DNA of 64,000 nt, taken from the sequence record OK272472.1. One strand, 5' to 3'. The stretch comes from Escherichia phage JLBYU28. Below are positions 7,660 through 20,686 of this stretch, in pieces; the first letter of the stretch is position 1; each line of letters begins with the position of its first letter. The position numbers and the translations under genes are program-made. The notes below the pieces were generated by a model that searched no databases, had not been told where the DNA came from, and saw nothing but the letters and a program-made list of their open reading frames with translations.

Positions 7660-7870
7660 GCGACATCCCCACCTGCACCCACCTACCTGCACAATTCTAA
7701 AATGATTTTTCTTGCCCGACCTGAGCGGGGTCTGCACGTTTTGAAAATGAAAAAGCTCTTTGGAGATTACCTGCACAGTTTGAAAATGAATTTTCTCTTT
7801 GGAGTTCAAAATTTTCTCTACAGATTTCTGTCCAGAACTCTACCTGCACAATCCTGAAATGAAAAAGCCC
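7660..7870. repeat. array of 4-5 degenerate direct repeats, consensus about CCTGCACA-N6-GAAAATGAA
   Basis: Repeat units begin near 7686, 7732, 7770, 7842; the track ORFs across this stretch owe their recurring LHxxKM peptides to the DNA repeat. Confidence 0.55.
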
Positions 7871-7935
7871 TCCTTACCTGAAAAATTTACCAGATAAGAA
7901 AGGCTTAGTCTATTGTGAATATTCTACAGAGTTTC

Positions 7936-8721
7936 TTAGTTCTTTGCGTCTAAGAAGGTAACTTCCGGTGAAGAGAAGACCGTCTCGATATCCTCATCAG
8001 TTCTTGCATAGATATATGTATCTGCATCACTGCCAAATGTTACGGCTATCCTGTGATTGCTCTTCGACAGGTGGGTAACTAGAGCGTTACTCAGAGACAT
8101 CTTCTCAACCGGAGGGTTACTTTGATGTATCTTACCTTTTCTTCGTCTGAAGAGGGTAACTGTATCATCTGTGAACACAACTACACCTGCAAAGTATTCT
8201 GGTTCACAGTAGTTCTTCCAACCTGAGCGTAACTTGTGGTACATCTCTCCTTCATAGACATACAGATACACATCTACACTCTTCATCACCTGATTGATGA
8301 TAACTGTGACGGCTTGAGGGTCCAACCCACCAATACCTGCACCAATCATAGGTAACCCAACTTTCTTCAACTGATTGACTTCACAGTATCTGTTAAGCTG
8401 TTTCAAAGATGATTCTAAAGCACTGTATCGGGCATCTTTACCAGTCTTAAGCTGAGTGTAAAGATTAGCTATACGGCCTTGTTCTAAACGTGCTACAGAG
8501 AAATTGCCTAGTAAATTCTCACAGGGTTTGTGGCCTATACCACCTGCATACAGATAAACTTCTGTATCGGTCTCATATGCTTTTGGGTAAAGTTTAGAAA
8601 TCTTGTCAGCGATACCTGCACCCATTAAATTCATACAGTTGCAACCGTGACCAATAATATCAAACTTACCTTTATCAAATGCGGAGAAGATACCCCCATT
8701 GATGATTTTTACAATACCCAT
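7936..8721 (-). CDS. macro-domain protein (TARG1/Poa1-like ADP-ribose-processing domain) with C-terminal domain of unknown function
   Basis: N-terminal motifs IIGHGCNCMNLMGAGIA and PMIGAGIGGLDP match the macro-domain glycine-rich ADP-ribose binding loops. Confidence 0.6.
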   Translation of the reverse strand: MGIVKIINGGIFSAFDKGKFDIIGHGCNCMNLMGAGIADKISKLYPKAYETDTEVYLYAGGIGHKPCENLLGNFSVARLEQGRIANLYTQLKTGKDARYSALESSLKQLNRYCEVNQLKKVGLPMIGAGIGGLDPQAVTVIINQVMKSVDVYLYVYEGEMYHKLRSGWKNYCEPEYFAGVVVFTDDTVTLFRRRKGKIHQSNPPVEKMSLSNALVTHLSKSNHRIAVTFGSDADTYIYARTDEDIETVFSSPEVTFLDAKN

Positions 8722-8958
8722 TTAGCATCTCTCCCAAGATTCTTTATCTTCTGAAGGTTTTACACGCTGTCCTTCATGGTCTACCCAGATACATCCACAA
8801 CCTTCACAGATTACTGGTATTGCATAACCAGCTTTAAAGTCTTCTTCAGTGATGAGACCTTTTAAGTCACCTGTATCACGTCCGAACATTTCGATAGCAC
8901 AATCTTTGCAGAAATCAGCCATGAATAATTGCCTCTTGAATGATGATGCCTTCGCCAC
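8722..8958 (-). CDS. cysteine-rich small protein, possible zinc ribbon
   Basis: CKDC ... CEGCGC pattern. Confidence 0.45.
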   Translation of the reverse strand: MAKASSFKRQLFMADFCKDCAIEMFGRDTGDLKGLITEEDFKAGYAIPVICEGCGCIWVDHEGQRVKPSEDKESWERC

Positions 8959-10274: not shown

Positions 10275-11087
10275 TTATTCTTGACTGTAATAGTTGACAA
10301 GTGAAATCGCTTGATTCATCAACAACTTATCAGCCTGTGCTCCGCGACCAGCTTGTAATGCCAGTTGGTATACCTCTGTAACATATTTGTTAGACATACC
10401 TTCACAGTAGTCATTATAGTCTTCCCAAAAGGAAAATGCAGCATCACCATATAGGCGTAGTGTAATTAACATTGCTGCACGAATCCCAGAAGAATATTTT
10501 CGTTTTGCGTTTACTACACCTTTAAGCTGTACTTCAAGAGAATCAATTTGTTCCAGCTCATTTTTAAAGTCATTAAGATATTTAACTGTTTCAGTGTTAG
10601 AGACCTGTTGTACACCGTAGTATGCAGCAACATATTTAATAGCAGTTGCCCAAGATGCTTTCATCAGTTCTGACTCTGGGTTGAAAGAAATCATCTTCAT
10701 ATTCCCGTAATAAACTTCTGAAGGTTTTTCTCTTGCTAACTCAGAGTCAAAATGAGTGTACAAATCTGTGACATCCAATATAGAATTCACATGGTATATA
10801 ACTGCAATCAAGTTCTCTGGTCGTGTCAGATTACCAACTTTCCATGCCTCTCGACGTGAGTGCCCATCAATGATGAACAGTGAACTGCCAAACTTAGCTA
10901 CATGGACTACTGTTTGGTCTGGTGATACGTCACCATTAAGGTGTTTGCTTTTCAGACGCTTAAGTGTATTTCGTTGACGAGGGTTTTCTTTGTAACGTTT
11001 TTCATTAAGAAAATCCTCGACACTGATAATCTTAGTGTGAATTTTAACAACCTTGCCATTCAGTGCTACATTGATGCTGTTTGCCAT
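10275..11087 (-). CDS. ParB-like nuclease-domain protein
   Basis: Motif FIIDGHSRREAW resembles the ParB/Srx-fold GxxR box. Confidence 0.45.
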   Translation of the reverse strand: MANSINVALNGKVVKIHTKIISVEDFLNEKRYKENPRQRNTLKRLKSKHLNGDVSPDQTVVHVAKFGSSLFIIDGHSRREAWKVGNLTRPENLIAVIYHVNSILDVTDLYTHFDSELAREKPSEVYYGNMKMISFNPESELMKASWATAIKYVAAYYGVQQVSNTETVKYLNDFKNELEQIDSLEVQLKGVVNAKRKYSSGIRAAMLITLRLYGDAAFSFWEDYNDYCEGMSNKYVTEVYQLALQAGRGAQADKLLMNQAISLVNYYSQE

Positions 11088-11098
11088 AACTTGATACC

Positions 11099-11983
11099 TT
11101 AGTTGTGAATAATTACTTCGTTAATATCTTTGCTTCTCTGTGCATGTATTGTGTATGAATGACTAACCTCTGTCAAGTTAAAATTTTCAGGAATTAGGTT
11201 TGCCCATCCATCCCACTGAGAGTTTGACATCAAAACTTTAGAGCCTAACTCCCCCCAAGAAATCATATCTTCACATAATTTTACAGACATCTCAATGTCA
11301 AACTTTGCACCATATTTCTGGTTGGTATTGATATACGGGGGGTCACAGTAAATAACTGTGCCTTCTCCATGTTTTATGTCAACCCTGTTATAAGGTTCAC
11401 TGCTAAGTATTACCCTTTCATCGGTGATAAAACTGTAGAACTCAGACAGTGACTCCTTAGTTTTTGTGAAGAAAATCTCTTCTTCCAGCAAATACCCGCA
11501 AGGTGTTGCATAGTGACCTTTCATCTCTTTAGTAGTCTGCCATACACCACCAAAACTTAGTTTTTGAAGGAAAAACTGTCTGGCATAGTACCTGTAGTCA
11601 TATGCTCCTTCTTCACCAAGCAAAAGAAGTTCCTCTCTTACACTGTAATACATCTTATAGCGTAGACGGTTATGACGCTGGCCTTTCACGGCATACTCTT
11701 CCTGCATAGGTAAGGCTAAGTACCTCTTTGACAAGTACTCAAATTCTTCCATGAAGTTTTCATAGTCATCTCTGAAAGTTGTGTAAAGACCTATAATATG
11801 TTTATTTATCTCATTAATAAACACTTTTGCCTCTGGGTATCTGTTATAAGCCCAGATAGCTACTGAACCACCACCTGAAAACAGGTCATAGAAGTTTGTA
11901 CAGTTGTCTGGAAAGACACCTAAACGCTCATACTCTTTTAATATTCTTGTTTTACCACCAAGATATTTGAACATCGGCTTCAT
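11099..11983 (-). CDS. dam: DNA N6-adenine methyltransferase (Dam-like)
   Basis: Motif I FKYLGGK...DLFSGGGS and catalytic DPPY (IYCDPPYINT). Confidence 0.8.
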   Translation of the reverse strand: MKPMFKYLGGKTRILKEYERLGVFPDNCTNFYDLFSGGGSVAIWAYNRYPEAKVFINEINKHIIGLYTTFRDDYENFMEEFEYLSKRYLALPMQEEYAVKGQRHNRLRYKMYYSVREELLLLGEEGAYDYRYYARQFFLQKLSFGGVWQTTKEMKGHYATPCGYLLEEEIFFTKTKESLSEFYSFITDERVILSSEPYNRVDIKHGEGTVIYCDPPYINTNQKYGAKFDIEMSVKLCEDMISWGELGSKVLMSNSQWDGWANLIPENFNLTEVSHSYTIHAQRSKDINEVIIHN

Positions 11984-17962: not shown

Positions 17963-19744
17963 TTAAAGCTGCTTGTCAATATTATTTCGAATATCACCAA
18001 GAGTTGTGTAACCGTACTGCTCAGAGTCACTAAAGACTAAACGTAAAGCACAAGCTGGATGTTCAAGTGCATCTGCAAAGCTCTGGAATCCATAGCCATC
18101 TACAGCTTTCAACTTATCACCATCCCACATAGGTGCTACACCACCAAAAGCAGACTTCTTAACACCACTATCTGTTTTAGGGTCTTTTGCAAGCATAATC
18201 TCTTTACCACCAATGCTTGCAAGAGTTGCTTTAACAGCAAATGCAAAGGTGTCACGAGTCATGTACTGGTAAGTGTAAGAGCCTACGCCAAACACTACGT
18301 TAGAGCTTGCAAAACCCATTTCATACAGACGCTTCAGGATTTCGTTTGCACGTTCCAGCGTGATAGAGTCGCCATAGATAAGTCCGATATGCTCATCCAG
18401 TACCTTAAACCCTTTAGAGTTGATAGTTCCTCCAAAGATGTTATACAAAGTCTTAATAGCCCCATCAATCTCTGCTACAGGACGTGTTACAACGTTTGCA
18501 GAACCAACCATATAAGCATTTTTCAACATCACTGTATCAGCAACTTCAAAGTCTTCTCTGTCAACAACCATTTCGTAGCCTTCTGACAGTAGCCATCCAG
18601 CAATACCATAATTGATGTTTTCAAGCTTCATGTTCAGAACAGAGTTTAGCATTGTATCACTAGCTTCCAGCTTGCTAAGATGTTCATAATAAGCCTTCTT
18701 AGCACATTCTAAGTGGATTGCTTTATAACCTGTGACAATATGTACAGGGTCTCCAGAGTCAGGACGAATTACCAGTTTACCGTCACGTCCCATAATCTCT
18801 TTACGAAGTGCTGGTAAGATTTCTGACACAGTTCTCCAGAAGTTATAAGTGTCTGAGACAACACTTGCAATACCAGTTGGGTAAGTTTCTGTTAAGAAGC
18901 GACGGAAGGTTTGTAATTCACCTTTAAAGCGTCTTTCTTCTTCAATCAACTCATTACCACCTTCCAAAGCAATGTTTGCACACATTACAGAGTGTTCAGT
19001 GGCTGGTACAGAACCACCAATATCAGAGACTGGGTAAGACTGTCCGTAGATGCGTTTAGCTGTATATACAGCAGGGAAGCTATCAGTCCCTTTAAAGCTG
19101 GTTAAGTGGCCTACAGCGTTAAATGCGTCATCAGTAAAGCCGGACATACCACGCATAGCAAAGTCATGGCACTGATAAGGTAAATGTAAGTCATTGTCGC
19201 AAGTAAGGTCAGCCCACTTCTTACAGATACGTTTGTAGTGCAATGCAATAGTTGCGATGGTACAAGCCTTCCAAATCTCAGCAGAGAAAGCATCTTCCAG
19301 ATACCCTGCTACCCAATGGAAACCTGAAACAGTGTTCTGGAAGACAAGCATTGGTACACGCATAGGAACAACTGTGCCTTCTTCTACAGCGTATACTTCG
19401 ACTGGCAGATAACCTAAGTCATGAAGTGCTTCCCAATGCTCTCGACCAATAGCATCTTTGCCCAGAACACCGTTCATGACTTCTAAGATTTCGTCAATTG
19501 CTTCTTTTTTGTCACGTTCAAAGAAAGTGGCGTTCCAATGGTCTATCAAGTAATCTTTAACGAAACGTTGAATACCAAAAGCCACTACACCGTCAATTGC
19601 CAAAGGGCTGTTAAACCATTTATCACTACGTGGTGTCAGGTTCAACATAAGATATTGCGTAGCATCTGGATACTGATATATATGTGATGCCTTGTAAGCA
19701 TCTGCATTAAGACCTGCTGGTACTGCATAAAGTGATTTAGTCAT
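17963..19744 (-). CDS. nadV: nicotinamide phosphoribosyltransferase family protein (NadV/Nampt-like; possibly Namat of an NAD+ reconstitution pathway)
   Basis: Recalled Nampt-family blocks: DAYKASHIYQYP, EVYAVEEGTVVP, CHDFAMRG...FKGTDS, VVSDTYNF, RPDSGDP. Confidence 0.85.
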   Translation of the reverse strand: MTKSLYAVPAGLNADAYKASHIYQYPDATQYLMLNLTPRSDKWFNSPLAIDGVVAFGIQRFVKDYLIDHWNATFFERDKKEAIDEILEVMNGVLGKDAIGREHWEALHDLGYLPVEVYAVEEGTVVPMRVPMLVFQNTVSGFHWVAGYLEDAFSAEIWKACTIATIALHYKRICKKWADLTCDNDLHLPYQCHDFAMRGMSGFTDDAFNAVGHLTSFKGTDSFPAVYTAKRIYGQSYPVSDIGGSVPATEHSVMCANIALEGGNELIEEERRFKGELQTFRRFLTETYPTGIASVVSDTYNFWRTVSEILPALRKEIMGRDGKLVIRPDSGDPVHIVTGYKAIHLECAKKAYYEHLSKLEASDTMLNSVLNMKLENINYGIAGWLLSEGYEMVVDREDFEVADTVMLKNAYMVGSANVVTRPVAEIDGAIKTLYNIFGGTINSKGFKVLDEHIGLIYGDSITLERANEILKRLYEMGFASSNVVFGVGSYTYQYMTRDTFAFAVKATLASIGGKEIMLAKDPKTDSGVKKSAFGGVAPMWDGDKLKAVDGYGFQSFADALEHPACALRLVFSDSEQYGYTTLGDIRNNIDKQL

Positions 19745-19789
19745 CTTTTAATCTCTCTCAAAATGGGGCTTTTAAGCCCCTATAAACTT

Positions 19790-20686
19790 TCAATTAAGGT
19801 TTGCTACAGTAACTTGACTATGATGTGTTAAGCTACGGTCTTTAGCTTCTCCTAAAGAGTTTGTAGTGTAGATATGGTCAATACCATTGTCAAGTAAGTT
19901 TTCAACACCTTTAGAGAAAATACCATGAGTTACATATAGTTCCACACGTTTTGCACCTGCTTCACGAAGATGTTTCGCTGCTTCTATGAAGGTTCGACCA
20001 CCATCACAGATATCATCCAGAATCATGACAGTTTTATCTGTCAAATCAACATCATCAAGGATTCGCATACCAGTGATTTCACCAGTTTTGAGGTTGCGTA
20101 CTTTAGACATTGTGATGTATGGTTTATCTACCTCTTTAGCAGTCTCTGCAATCTTCTTAGAAGCACCTGCATCTGGAGCTACTAAGTAATCAATCAGTGG
20201 GTCATTTGCATAGTGGACTGCAATTTCCTTTTGAGGAATACTCTGGAAGCAGTTAAAAAGGTTATCTGGAACGTAACTGTGAGGGTCAACTGCACAGACT
20301 GCGCCAAATCCCAATGCATTAACCTGTTTAGCAAAAACCTTCAAAGCTGCTGCATCACCTTTAAACATGTGACGGTCATATCGTGCATTCGGTAAGTAGT
20401 AAAAGATGACAGTCTTTAAGGCATAATCATGAGGAATCAAATCATCAATTACCTCTTTAGCAAGTGCCACAGCAAACAGTGTGTCTTTGTCATAACCCTT
20501 TACAATCATAACCACATTGTTAATAGATGATGCTGCATAAGCAGTAAAATCAACAAACTCTGGCGAAAAGTGTCCACCAATCTCACCAGAAGGAAATTGG
20601 ATGATGTTAAACTCTTCTTCATGAGTTCCTTTAGTTGGTGAATGAATTGTAACACGGATAGATGTTTTCATAGTCTTCTCTCTCAA
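19790..20686 (-). CDS. prs: ribose-phosphate pyrophosphokinase family protein (Prs-like; possibly ADPR-pyrophosphate synthetase Adps)
   Basis: Prs blocks VAPDAGASKK, ILDDICDGGRT (PRPP-binding loop), VTHGIFS, IYTTNSL. Confidence 0.8.
   Translation of the reverse strand: MREKTMKTSIRVTIHSPTKGTHEEEFNIIQFPSGEIGGHFSPEFVDFTAYAASSINNVVMIVKGYDKDTLFAVALAKEVIDDLIPHDYALKTVIFYYLPNARYDRHMFKGDAAALKVFAKQVNALGFGAVCAVDPHSYVPDNLFNCFQSIPQKEIAVHYANDPLIDYLVAPDAGASKKIAETAKEVDKPYITMSKVRNLKTGEITGMRILDDVDLTDKTVMILDDICDGGRTFIEAAKHLREAGAKRVELYVTHGIFSKGVENLLDNGIDHIYTTNSLGEAKDRSLTHHSQVTVANLN

Follow-up and report, generated by a model that had tools for sequence, protein, structure and literature searches.

Escherichia phage JLBYU28 (sequence record OK272472.1) carries, at positions 7936-8721 on the minus strand of the 64,000-nucleotide stretch that we analyzed (the window), a gene for a two-domain protein of 261 amino acids (aa). 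The first part of the protein is a macro domain (residues 1-157; 8251-8721) and the second an orphan C-terminal domain (residues 158-261; 7939-8250). The macro half falls in one clade with Tk.4/AdfM of phage T4 and with the Adpp proteins of NARP1-AP, and in all clade members compared glutamine stands at the position of the catalytic lysine of TARG1 and DarG. Judging by these relatives, the protein is very probably an ADP-ribose C1'' hydrolase used in counter-defence against ADP-ribose-based host immunity. As a whole, we tentatively favor the explanation that it is an Ounavirinae phage macro hydrolase with an AdfM-like job and a non-catalytic C-terminal module. That its main substrate is DarT2-modified thymidine in phage single-stranded DNA (ssDNA) is suggested by analogy with AdfM, and we hold this part with some doubt.

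Macro Domain and Active Site

A macro domain in the first ~150 residues had been read from the letters alone in an earlier note on this DNA, and this reading stands. The Pfam model Macro (PF01661) matches residues 25-141 with 32.1 bits against a curated gathering cutoff of 22 (E=1.2e-7), and the profile of PHROG 335, labeled 'phosphatase', matches over residues 1-260 (E=1.3e-111). The full-length AlphaFold2 model, made with 29 homologs, is confident along its whole length (predicted local distance difference test, pLDDT, 90.7; predicted template modeling score, pTM, 0.89). The structural comparison that the note had proposed as a check was done by Foldseek with the N-terminal half of this model, which matched TARG1 (template modeling, TM, score 0.81-0.85), DarG (0.78), and Poa1p (0.75) with probability 1.00. 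The model shows the three alpha/beta/alpha layers of a macro fold, and the two glycine-rich loops for ADP-ribose (MGAGIA and GAGIGG) are in place. Both motifs quoted earlier are present: loop 1, HGCNCMNLMGAGIA, at residues 25-38 (8608-8649, minus strand), whose His25 and Asn28 are invariant in the clade, and loop 2, GAGIGGLDP, the diphosphate/distal-ribose loop according to the alignments, at residues 127-135 (8317-8343, minus strand). Among solved structures, the sequence is closest to TARG1 (profile E=1.8e-11), to the DarG macrodomains 5M3I/5M31, and to Poa1p, the latter in its N-terminal part only. The macro identification itself is not new and is already found in public annotations; the usual GenBank label of the ortholog is 'phosphatase', and 'putative phosphatase', 'O-acetyl-ADP-ribose deacetylase', 'macro domain-containing protein', and 'hypothetical' also occur.

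The active site was compared in HMMER and MAFFT alignments with authentic TARG1, the DarG proteins of Mycobacterium tuberculosis (Mtb) and Thermus aquaticus (Taq), and Poa1p, the DarG and Poa1p sequences being checked at 100% identity against the PDB. Here the motif NLYTQ (residues 86-90; 8452-8466, minus strand) sets Gln90 in the column where TARG1 (K84) and DarG (K80) have their catalytic Lys. The column of TARG1 Asp125 is Gly in this protein and Gly or Ala across the clade, so that two residues of the Lys-dependent TARG1/DarG class are absent. Asn28 lies in the column of DarG N22, and His25 and Asn28 lie in the columns of Poa1p H23 and N26. His25, Asn28, and Gln90 are invariant in 35/35 phage-clade members, T4 AdfM and the Adpp of Vibrio phage Gary included. 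Because Gln90 replaces the catalytic Lys, the protein, as far as the alignments tell, shares its fold and ligand loops with TARG1 and DarG but not their mechanism. The name 'TARG1/Poa1-like' given in the earlier note thus holds for the fold and the ligand loops, while the TARG1 mechanism has to be given up.

Each of the solved enzymes shares a different part of its features with the window protein. TARG1 (OARD1; PDB 4J5Q/R/S) is the best solved-structure match by both sequence and fold, and the His and the MGAGIA loop are common to both; apart from the changes of K84 and D125, TARG1 carries Ser in the column of the clade's Asn28. The yeast ADP-ribose-1''-phosphate phosphatase Poa1p (PDB 6LFQ) has the same H-x-C-N-C motif and also lacks the catalytic Lys, but its sequence likeness is confined to the N-terminal ~60 residues, the residue opposite Gln90 is Ser, and the window protein does not keep S30 of Poa1p. 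In eukaryotes, Poa1p serves tRNA splicing as a housekeeping enzyme. DarG (DarG2; PDB 5M31/5M3E, 5M3I) has the macro fold, the equivalent of Asn28 (N22), and the same layout of a macro domain plus a second domain, but its Lys is essential and its toxin-binding domain is unrelated to the C-terminal domain of the window protein. No DarT gene lies beside the macro gene: its neighbors are small phage open reading frames (ORFs) without a Pfam family among those scanned, and in all relatives the surrounding DNA is syntenic phage DNA. The chimallivirus AdfM (PhiKZ gp104) is a separate macro protein of DarG type, which retains the Lys; this residue is required in DarG (K80) and in chimallivirus AdfM (K78) (PMC13309987).

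In the mechanism that we propose, the macro half would take up the ADP-ribose moiety in the two glycine-rich loops and would hydrolyze the group attached at the ribose C1'' without the Lys of TARG1 and DarG. Most likely, the invariant His25, Asn28, and Gln90 would position water and substrate, as in enzymes of the Poa1p type.

At least in this isolate, the protein could alternatively bind ADP-ribose without cleaving it, as a reader or sponge, or be an inactive remnant. The lack of the Lys that serves catalysis in the nearest solved enzymes agrees with such a role, and so does codon 10 (8692-8694, minus strand), which in the raw sequence is GGT (Gly), whereas relatives have GAT (Asp) and rarely Asn. 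In the alignments, residue 10 falls on the Asp with which macro domains contact adenine (D20 in TARG1). It is Asp in 19 of 20 close relatives and Asn in the remaining one, and the Gly is private to this isolate; a census of the wider clade gave D 25, N 8, C 1, and G 1, and the nearest GenBank relative, LTH02, has Asp. The change D10G needs one transition (GAT to GGT) and may represent a hypomorphic allele with weakened ADP-ribose binding, a recent mutation, or a sequencing error. As a single private change it says little against activity in the family, where Gary Adpp performs catalysis with the same Gln-bearing active site, the ratio of nonsynonymous to synonymous substitution rates (dN/dS, omega) of the macro half is 0.07-0.17, and the three residues named above do not vary. 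A binder or remnant is therefore highly improbable.

Phage Relatives and Substrate

The top pairwise score of the window macro half is with T4 Tk.4 (78 bits, 33-34% identity, E=1e-22), and both belong to PHROG 335. Tk.4 was named AdfM (anti-DarT factor Macrodomain) in the HIDEN-SEQ preprint, where deletion of tk.4 sensitized T4 to DarTG2 (bioRxiv 10.1101/2025.11.20.689424). The Adpp of Vibrio phage Gary (KNV71_gp137) converts ADP-ribose (ADPR)-1''-phosphate to ADPR, as detected by liquid chromatography-mass spectrometry (LC-MS), and is needed to overcome aRES (bioRxiv 10.64898/2026.01.28.702374). The window protein is 27% identical to Gary Adpp (E=6e-12), with the same motif triad, and 27-35% identical to the Adpp proteins of NARP1 operons. 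T4 Tk.4 (L002:4923-5390) and Gary Adpp share 35% identity (77 bits), and both have Gln at the Lys position. From these comparisons, T4 AdfM and Adpp appear to be one Lys-less clade with the motifs H-x-C-N ... N-L-Y-T-Q ... I-G-A-G-I-G-G of PHROG 335, and a single family seems to have received two names in the two papers. Since T4 AdfM lacks the Lys, having Gln instead, its assumed DarG-like mechanism needs checking. It appears that this clade has not been described as such before, and that the Ounavirinae core protein adds an orphan domain to it.

If the members of the clade share one active site, which substrate does the window protein act on? Homology would fix the chemistry, that is, hydrolysis at the ribose C1'' of ADP-ribose, but not the substrate. 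Two roles proposed in the earlier note have counterparts among the homologs: de-ADP-ribosylation of DNA corresponds to the action of Tk.4/AdfM against DarTG2, and hydrolysis of ADPR-derived signals corresponds to the cleavage of ADPR-1''-phosphate by Adpp in NARP1-AP, which is tied to the NAD+ module. We prefer the former as the main job: like AdfM, the enzyme would strip DarT2-type ADP-ribose from ssDNA thymidines, and phage replication would proceed. In its favor we count the closeness of T4 Tk.4, the short loop after Gln90, the position of the gene outside an Adpp operon, the DarG-like two-module layout, and the DarG models as best family-level matches, as well as purifying selection on both halves of the gene and the conserved architecture and genomic slot. 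A close second would be a job in the service of the phage's NARP1, for which the enzyme would turn ADPR-1''-phosphate into ADPR; this may be a concurrent activity. One enzyme may do both jobs because each of them displaces a leaving group from C1''.

Besides the clade and PHROG, the window protein shares with T4 Tk.4 the HGCNC/NLYTQ/IGAGIG motifs, the Gln, the short post-Gln loop, and the 'phosphatase' label. In contrast, Tk.4 is a stand-alone macro protein of 155 aa without the C-terminal domain, T4 has no NARP1, and the anti-DarTG2 role is a genetic one, seen in T4 only. Adpp proteins share the clade, the His/Asn/Gln triad, and the glycine loops, and the window phage too has NARP1. They differ in being single-domain proteins (~150-165 aa) with an insertion of 4-7 residues after the Gln, which is found in 11/11 distinct NARP1-operon macro sequences taken from Table S1 of the aRES preprint (bioRxiv 10.64898/2026.01.28.702374) and is missing in the window protein as in T4 Tk.4. 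We considered this insertion as an Adpp signature and retained it as weak evidence only, because among the stand-alone IMG/VR loci one (L083) has a short loop beside a Namat-like gene and many that bear the insertion have no Namat.

DarG models gave the best family-level matches (46 bits for NCBIfam, 47 bits for PADLOC). The NCBIfam match (NF048014) lies far below the cutoff of 250 bits and covers the macro region only, and there is no full-length match that would include the C-terminal DarT-binding domain. Similarity to DarG models was rejected as a discriminator, since the PADLOC scores of T4 AdfM and Gary Adpp are about equal to that of the window protein.

A metagenomic protein of 339 aa (P0026) has a Gln-bearing macro domain of this clade fused to cREC_REC (PF20274, 30.8 bits against a cutoff of 27) instead of the orphan domain. 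This fusion suggests that the clade recruits various C-terminal modules and that it is tied to ADPR-phosphate chemistry.

We found no literature on macro proteins of Felixounavirus, nor any test of an Ounavirinae phage against DarTG, aRES, or Thoeris. Phages Bas60-62, which carry AdfN, were rejected as Felix-like evidence, being Vequintavirinae, and the CmdTAC paper contains no macro-domain data of relevance.

NARP1 and the Position of the Macro Gene

The ADPR-consuming NAD+ module that the earlier note placed in this genome is indeed there, on the minus strand at 17963-20686: a Namat-like gene (17963-19744; Pfam NAPRTase/NAMPT_N) and an Adps-like gene (19790-20686; Pfam Pribosyltran/Pribosyl_synth). 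The Namat-like protein scores 432 bits against the SPbetaL1 Namat structures 9W5W/9W5X versus ~141 bits against canonical NAMPT, and by this measure the pair is a true NARP1 (Adps and Namat). The macro gene does not belong to this operon but stands 9.2 kb and more than 12 genes further downstream, with a terminator of its own; rIIA, rIIB, a polynucleotide kinase (PNK)-like gene, spanins, and small ORFs lie between.

This arrangement allows a second reading, in which NARP1-AP is split and the macro protein is the phage's Adpp acting in trans. ADPR-1''-phosphate from aRES-type NADases would be converted to ADPR, from which Adps and Namat would rebuild NAD+, and the C-terminal domain could dock to the NARP1 enzymes or tune specificity. 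We regard this reading as possible but rather doubtful. The biochemistry of Gary Adpp, which makes ADPR from ADPR-1''-phosphate in vitro and is needed against aRES, speaks for it, together with the motifs, triad, and 27-35% identity shared with Adpp proteins. The phage has a true NARP1 pair without an adjacent macro gene, and of the 22 two-domain loci whose upstream flank extends over the full 10 kb, 20 have NARP1 on the strand of the macro gene, 7.5-9.8 kb upstream of it; a Namat-like gene is found within 10 kb of only ~5/50 stand-alone relatives. The cREC_REC fusion in P0026 points to soluble ADPR-phosphate chemistry, and Poa1p, the reference ADPR-1''-phosphate phosphatase, has the same His and Asn and likewise no Lys.

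However, the gene falls outside the Adpp operon definition, by which Adpp lies within two genes of Adps/Namat; the distance to Namat is 9.2 kb here and 7.5-8.3 kb in the inspected relatives, and Table S1 of the aRES preprint lists no Escherichia or Salmonella phage. The post-Gln insertion of every inspected Table S1 sequence is missing here. T4 keeps a close homolog without NARP1, so the clade is independent of NARP1, and the co-occurrence in Ounavirinae may reflect shared ancestry and not a functional link.

The spacing of 9.2 kb here, against 7.5 kb in most relatives, is due to an insertion at 10275-11983. It comprises a 270-aa ORF without a Pfam family (10275-11087) and a D12-class Dam-like N6-adenine methyltransferase gene (11099-11983). 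The pair is absent at the corresponding position of Bas63, and a MethyltransfD12 gene occupies a similar slot in two distant relatives (L003 and L004).

The PNK-like gene brings to mind the clean-up of an RNA-repair by-product, Appr-1''-p of the Tpt1/KptA pathway. We consider it unlikely, as the T4-type PNK/ligase pathway yields no 2'-phosphate, though no search for a KptA/Tpt1 or 2H gene was made.

The C-Terminal Domain

The earlier note saw no recognizable motif after the macro domain, and the ~105 C-terminal residues gave only sub-threshold noise, and no family, in the Pfam search. The predicted fold of residues 158-261 consists of one helix, six beta-strands, and a C-terminal helix; modeled alone, it reached pLDDT 80 and pTM 0.70, and the full-length model also shows it as a confident fold. 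A structure search of BFVD returned the protein's own family only. The same two-domain family was the only one found when a HMMER profile of the domain was run against 1.84 billion representative proteins, spurious repeat proteins aside. Large multi-stretch proteins (P0033 and P0035-P0045, E=1e-4 to 1e-11) were treated as spurious relatives; one of them, P0037, is a tandem-repeat protein that shares just the short word 'PRKFEGF' with the profile.

Both halves of the gene are under purifying selection, with omega of 0.18-0.44 in the C-terminal domain versus 0.07-0.17 in the macro half, and identity to the distant clade is 16-22% versus 39-47%. The C-terminal domain thus changes at two to three times the rate of the macro half. 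The only residues conserved across it are Pro, Gly, and Tyr, which argues against a second active site. From this pattern, the domain is probably a non-catalytic, rapidly evolving module, which in our proposal would direct the enzyme to its target or bind a partner. Its net charge and isoelectric point (pI) were also examined as a sign of DNA mimicry or DNA binding, and this was rejected, there being no consistent trend.

Another role for this domain would be that of a non-enzymatic inhibitor, which would directly bind and block an effector of the host such as DarT2 or an NADase of the aRES type. Eraser and inhibitor would in that case be joined in one protein, convergent with DarG through an unrelated fold; in a variant of this reading, one protein serves the counter-defence against both DarTG2 and aRES and feeds NARP1. 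We find the inhibitor unlikely. If it were true, an arms race with the blocked effector would be the reason why the domain changes so fast.

The fast-evolving domain could instead lend specificity for some other ADP-ribose conjugate or signal, such as RNA or protein that other ADP-ribosyltransferase defences of the host have modified, or 1''-linked immune signals such as the Thoeris ADPR derivatives. Macro domains act on many 1''- and 2''-linked substrates, the clade already has two distinct reported ones, and a survey of viral NAD+/ADP-ribose functions argued that phage macro domains mainly target soluble ADP-ribose derivatives (PMC9503650); rapid change of the C-terminal domain would fit adaptation to variable host factors. 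But no homolog has been shown to act on such substrates, the genomic context holds no pointer to them, and the CmdTAC paper makes no link to macro domains. Such a conjugate is improbable as the main target.

Two short forms of the protein occur in the databases. P0008 (179 aa, 15 member sequences) is the macro half with a frameshifted tail, and P0032 (114 aa) is essentially the C-terminal domain by itself. These split-gene forms may be natural variants, with real truncations, or assembly variants due to sequencing errors.

Weighing of the Favored Explanation

Several observations weigh against the AdfM-like job with a DarG-like layout. The support for a DNA substrate in this clade is one genetic result, obtained in T4 only, and biochemistry has been demonstrated for a single clade member, Gary Adpp, whose activity is that of an ADPR-1''-phosphate phosphatase. 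Gary Adpp and the window protein are equally close to T4 Tk.4, and the PADLOC DarG model rates Gary Adpp equal to the window protein. The Lys needed by DarG and chimallivirus AdfM is Gln here. In a bootstrapped neighbor-joining (NJ) tree the two-domain proteins are monophyletic (76%), but the tree gives no support for the order of the two-domain clade, the T4 group, and the Adpp groups; we therefore rejected phylogeny as a means of substrate assignment. The short post-Gln loop tracks the absence of NARP1 only imperfectly in the IMG/VR loci. The phage has NARP1 without an operon-linked macro gene, a vacancy that the window protein could fill. The C-terminal domain resembles none of the listed PDB chains, the DarG toxin-binding domain included, and its net charge, -6 to +2, carries no consistent signature of DNA binding or DNA mimicry. 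Finally, D10G may weaken ADP-ribose binding in this particular isolate.

Gene, Locus, and Distribution

The coding sequence (CDS) at 7936-8721 is complete in the ORF list, from an ATG start codon through 261 codons to a stop at 7936-7938. Orthologous CDSs are annotated in Bas63, LTH02, FelixO1, and other phages, and dN/dS is well below 1 in both halves. A Shine-Dalgarno sequence, GGGAG, is visible in the raw sequence 9 nt 5' of the ATG (8731-8735, minus strand). The TAA of a small upstream ORF (8722-8724) abuts the macro-gene ATG (TAAATG), and since the one directly precedes the other the two are probably translationally coupled.

At 30 nt 3' of the stop codon, a consensus scan found a strong hairpin like that of an intrinsic terminator (7855-7906, minus strand), with a 17-bp stem followed by UUUUUCAUUU; its RNA folding energy is -26.2 kcal/mol (z = -5.2 against shuffles). 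The hairpin and U-run place the macro gene last, at the 3' end, in its transcription unit on the minus strand, and not at the head of the block, where the earlier note had put it.

The ~500-bp gap just 3' of this terminator holds, at 7684-7877, four copies of a ~21-nt motif (CATTTTnRAAYnGTGCAGGTA on the minus strand). The cluster is local: other matches in the window need 3 mismatches, and the chance expectation is 0.08 matches. In Bas63, two small plus-strand ORFs are annotated at this place, and an Rfam scan of the intergenic region downstream of the macro gene gave no match. The cluster could be a regulatory or promoter array.

The source phage is a Felixounavirus, the 4 kb around the gene being 91-94% identical to many FelixO1-like phages of E. 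coli, Salmonella, and Shigella. The two-domain gene was found in 242 GenBank phage records, all of them Ounavirinae, FelixO1 itself among them. In the inspected homologs of 31-41% identity, both the genomic slot and the two-domain architecture are kept. The macro gene is a syntenic core gene of Ounavirinae.

In LTH02 (L085:236-1021), the C-terminal domain is 100% identical to that of the window gene, while the macro half is a minority haplotype (F32, A39, T40, R44, V48, D50, F58, R63, H92). Synonymous divergence (dS) is also unequal between the two gene halves (0.27 vs 0.17). Because the halves differ in haplotype match and in dS, the sequences suggest recombination inside the macro gene near the domain boundary.

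Conclusions

Phage macro domains have been linked to function just recently, and two jobs have been assigned within one clade that has one Lys-less active site. The Ounavirinae protein stands between AdfM and Adpp: it has the short loop of AdfM, it is encoded in a genome with NARP1, and its gene lies outside the NARP1 operon. It also has the extra domain, and is thereby well suited to show whether C1'' specificity is broad in this clade and how an enzyme of this kind is directed by its accessory domain. FelixO1-like phages are in wide use for Salmonella and E. coli typing and biocontrol, and the host defences neutralized by this core gene would bear on the host range of these phages.

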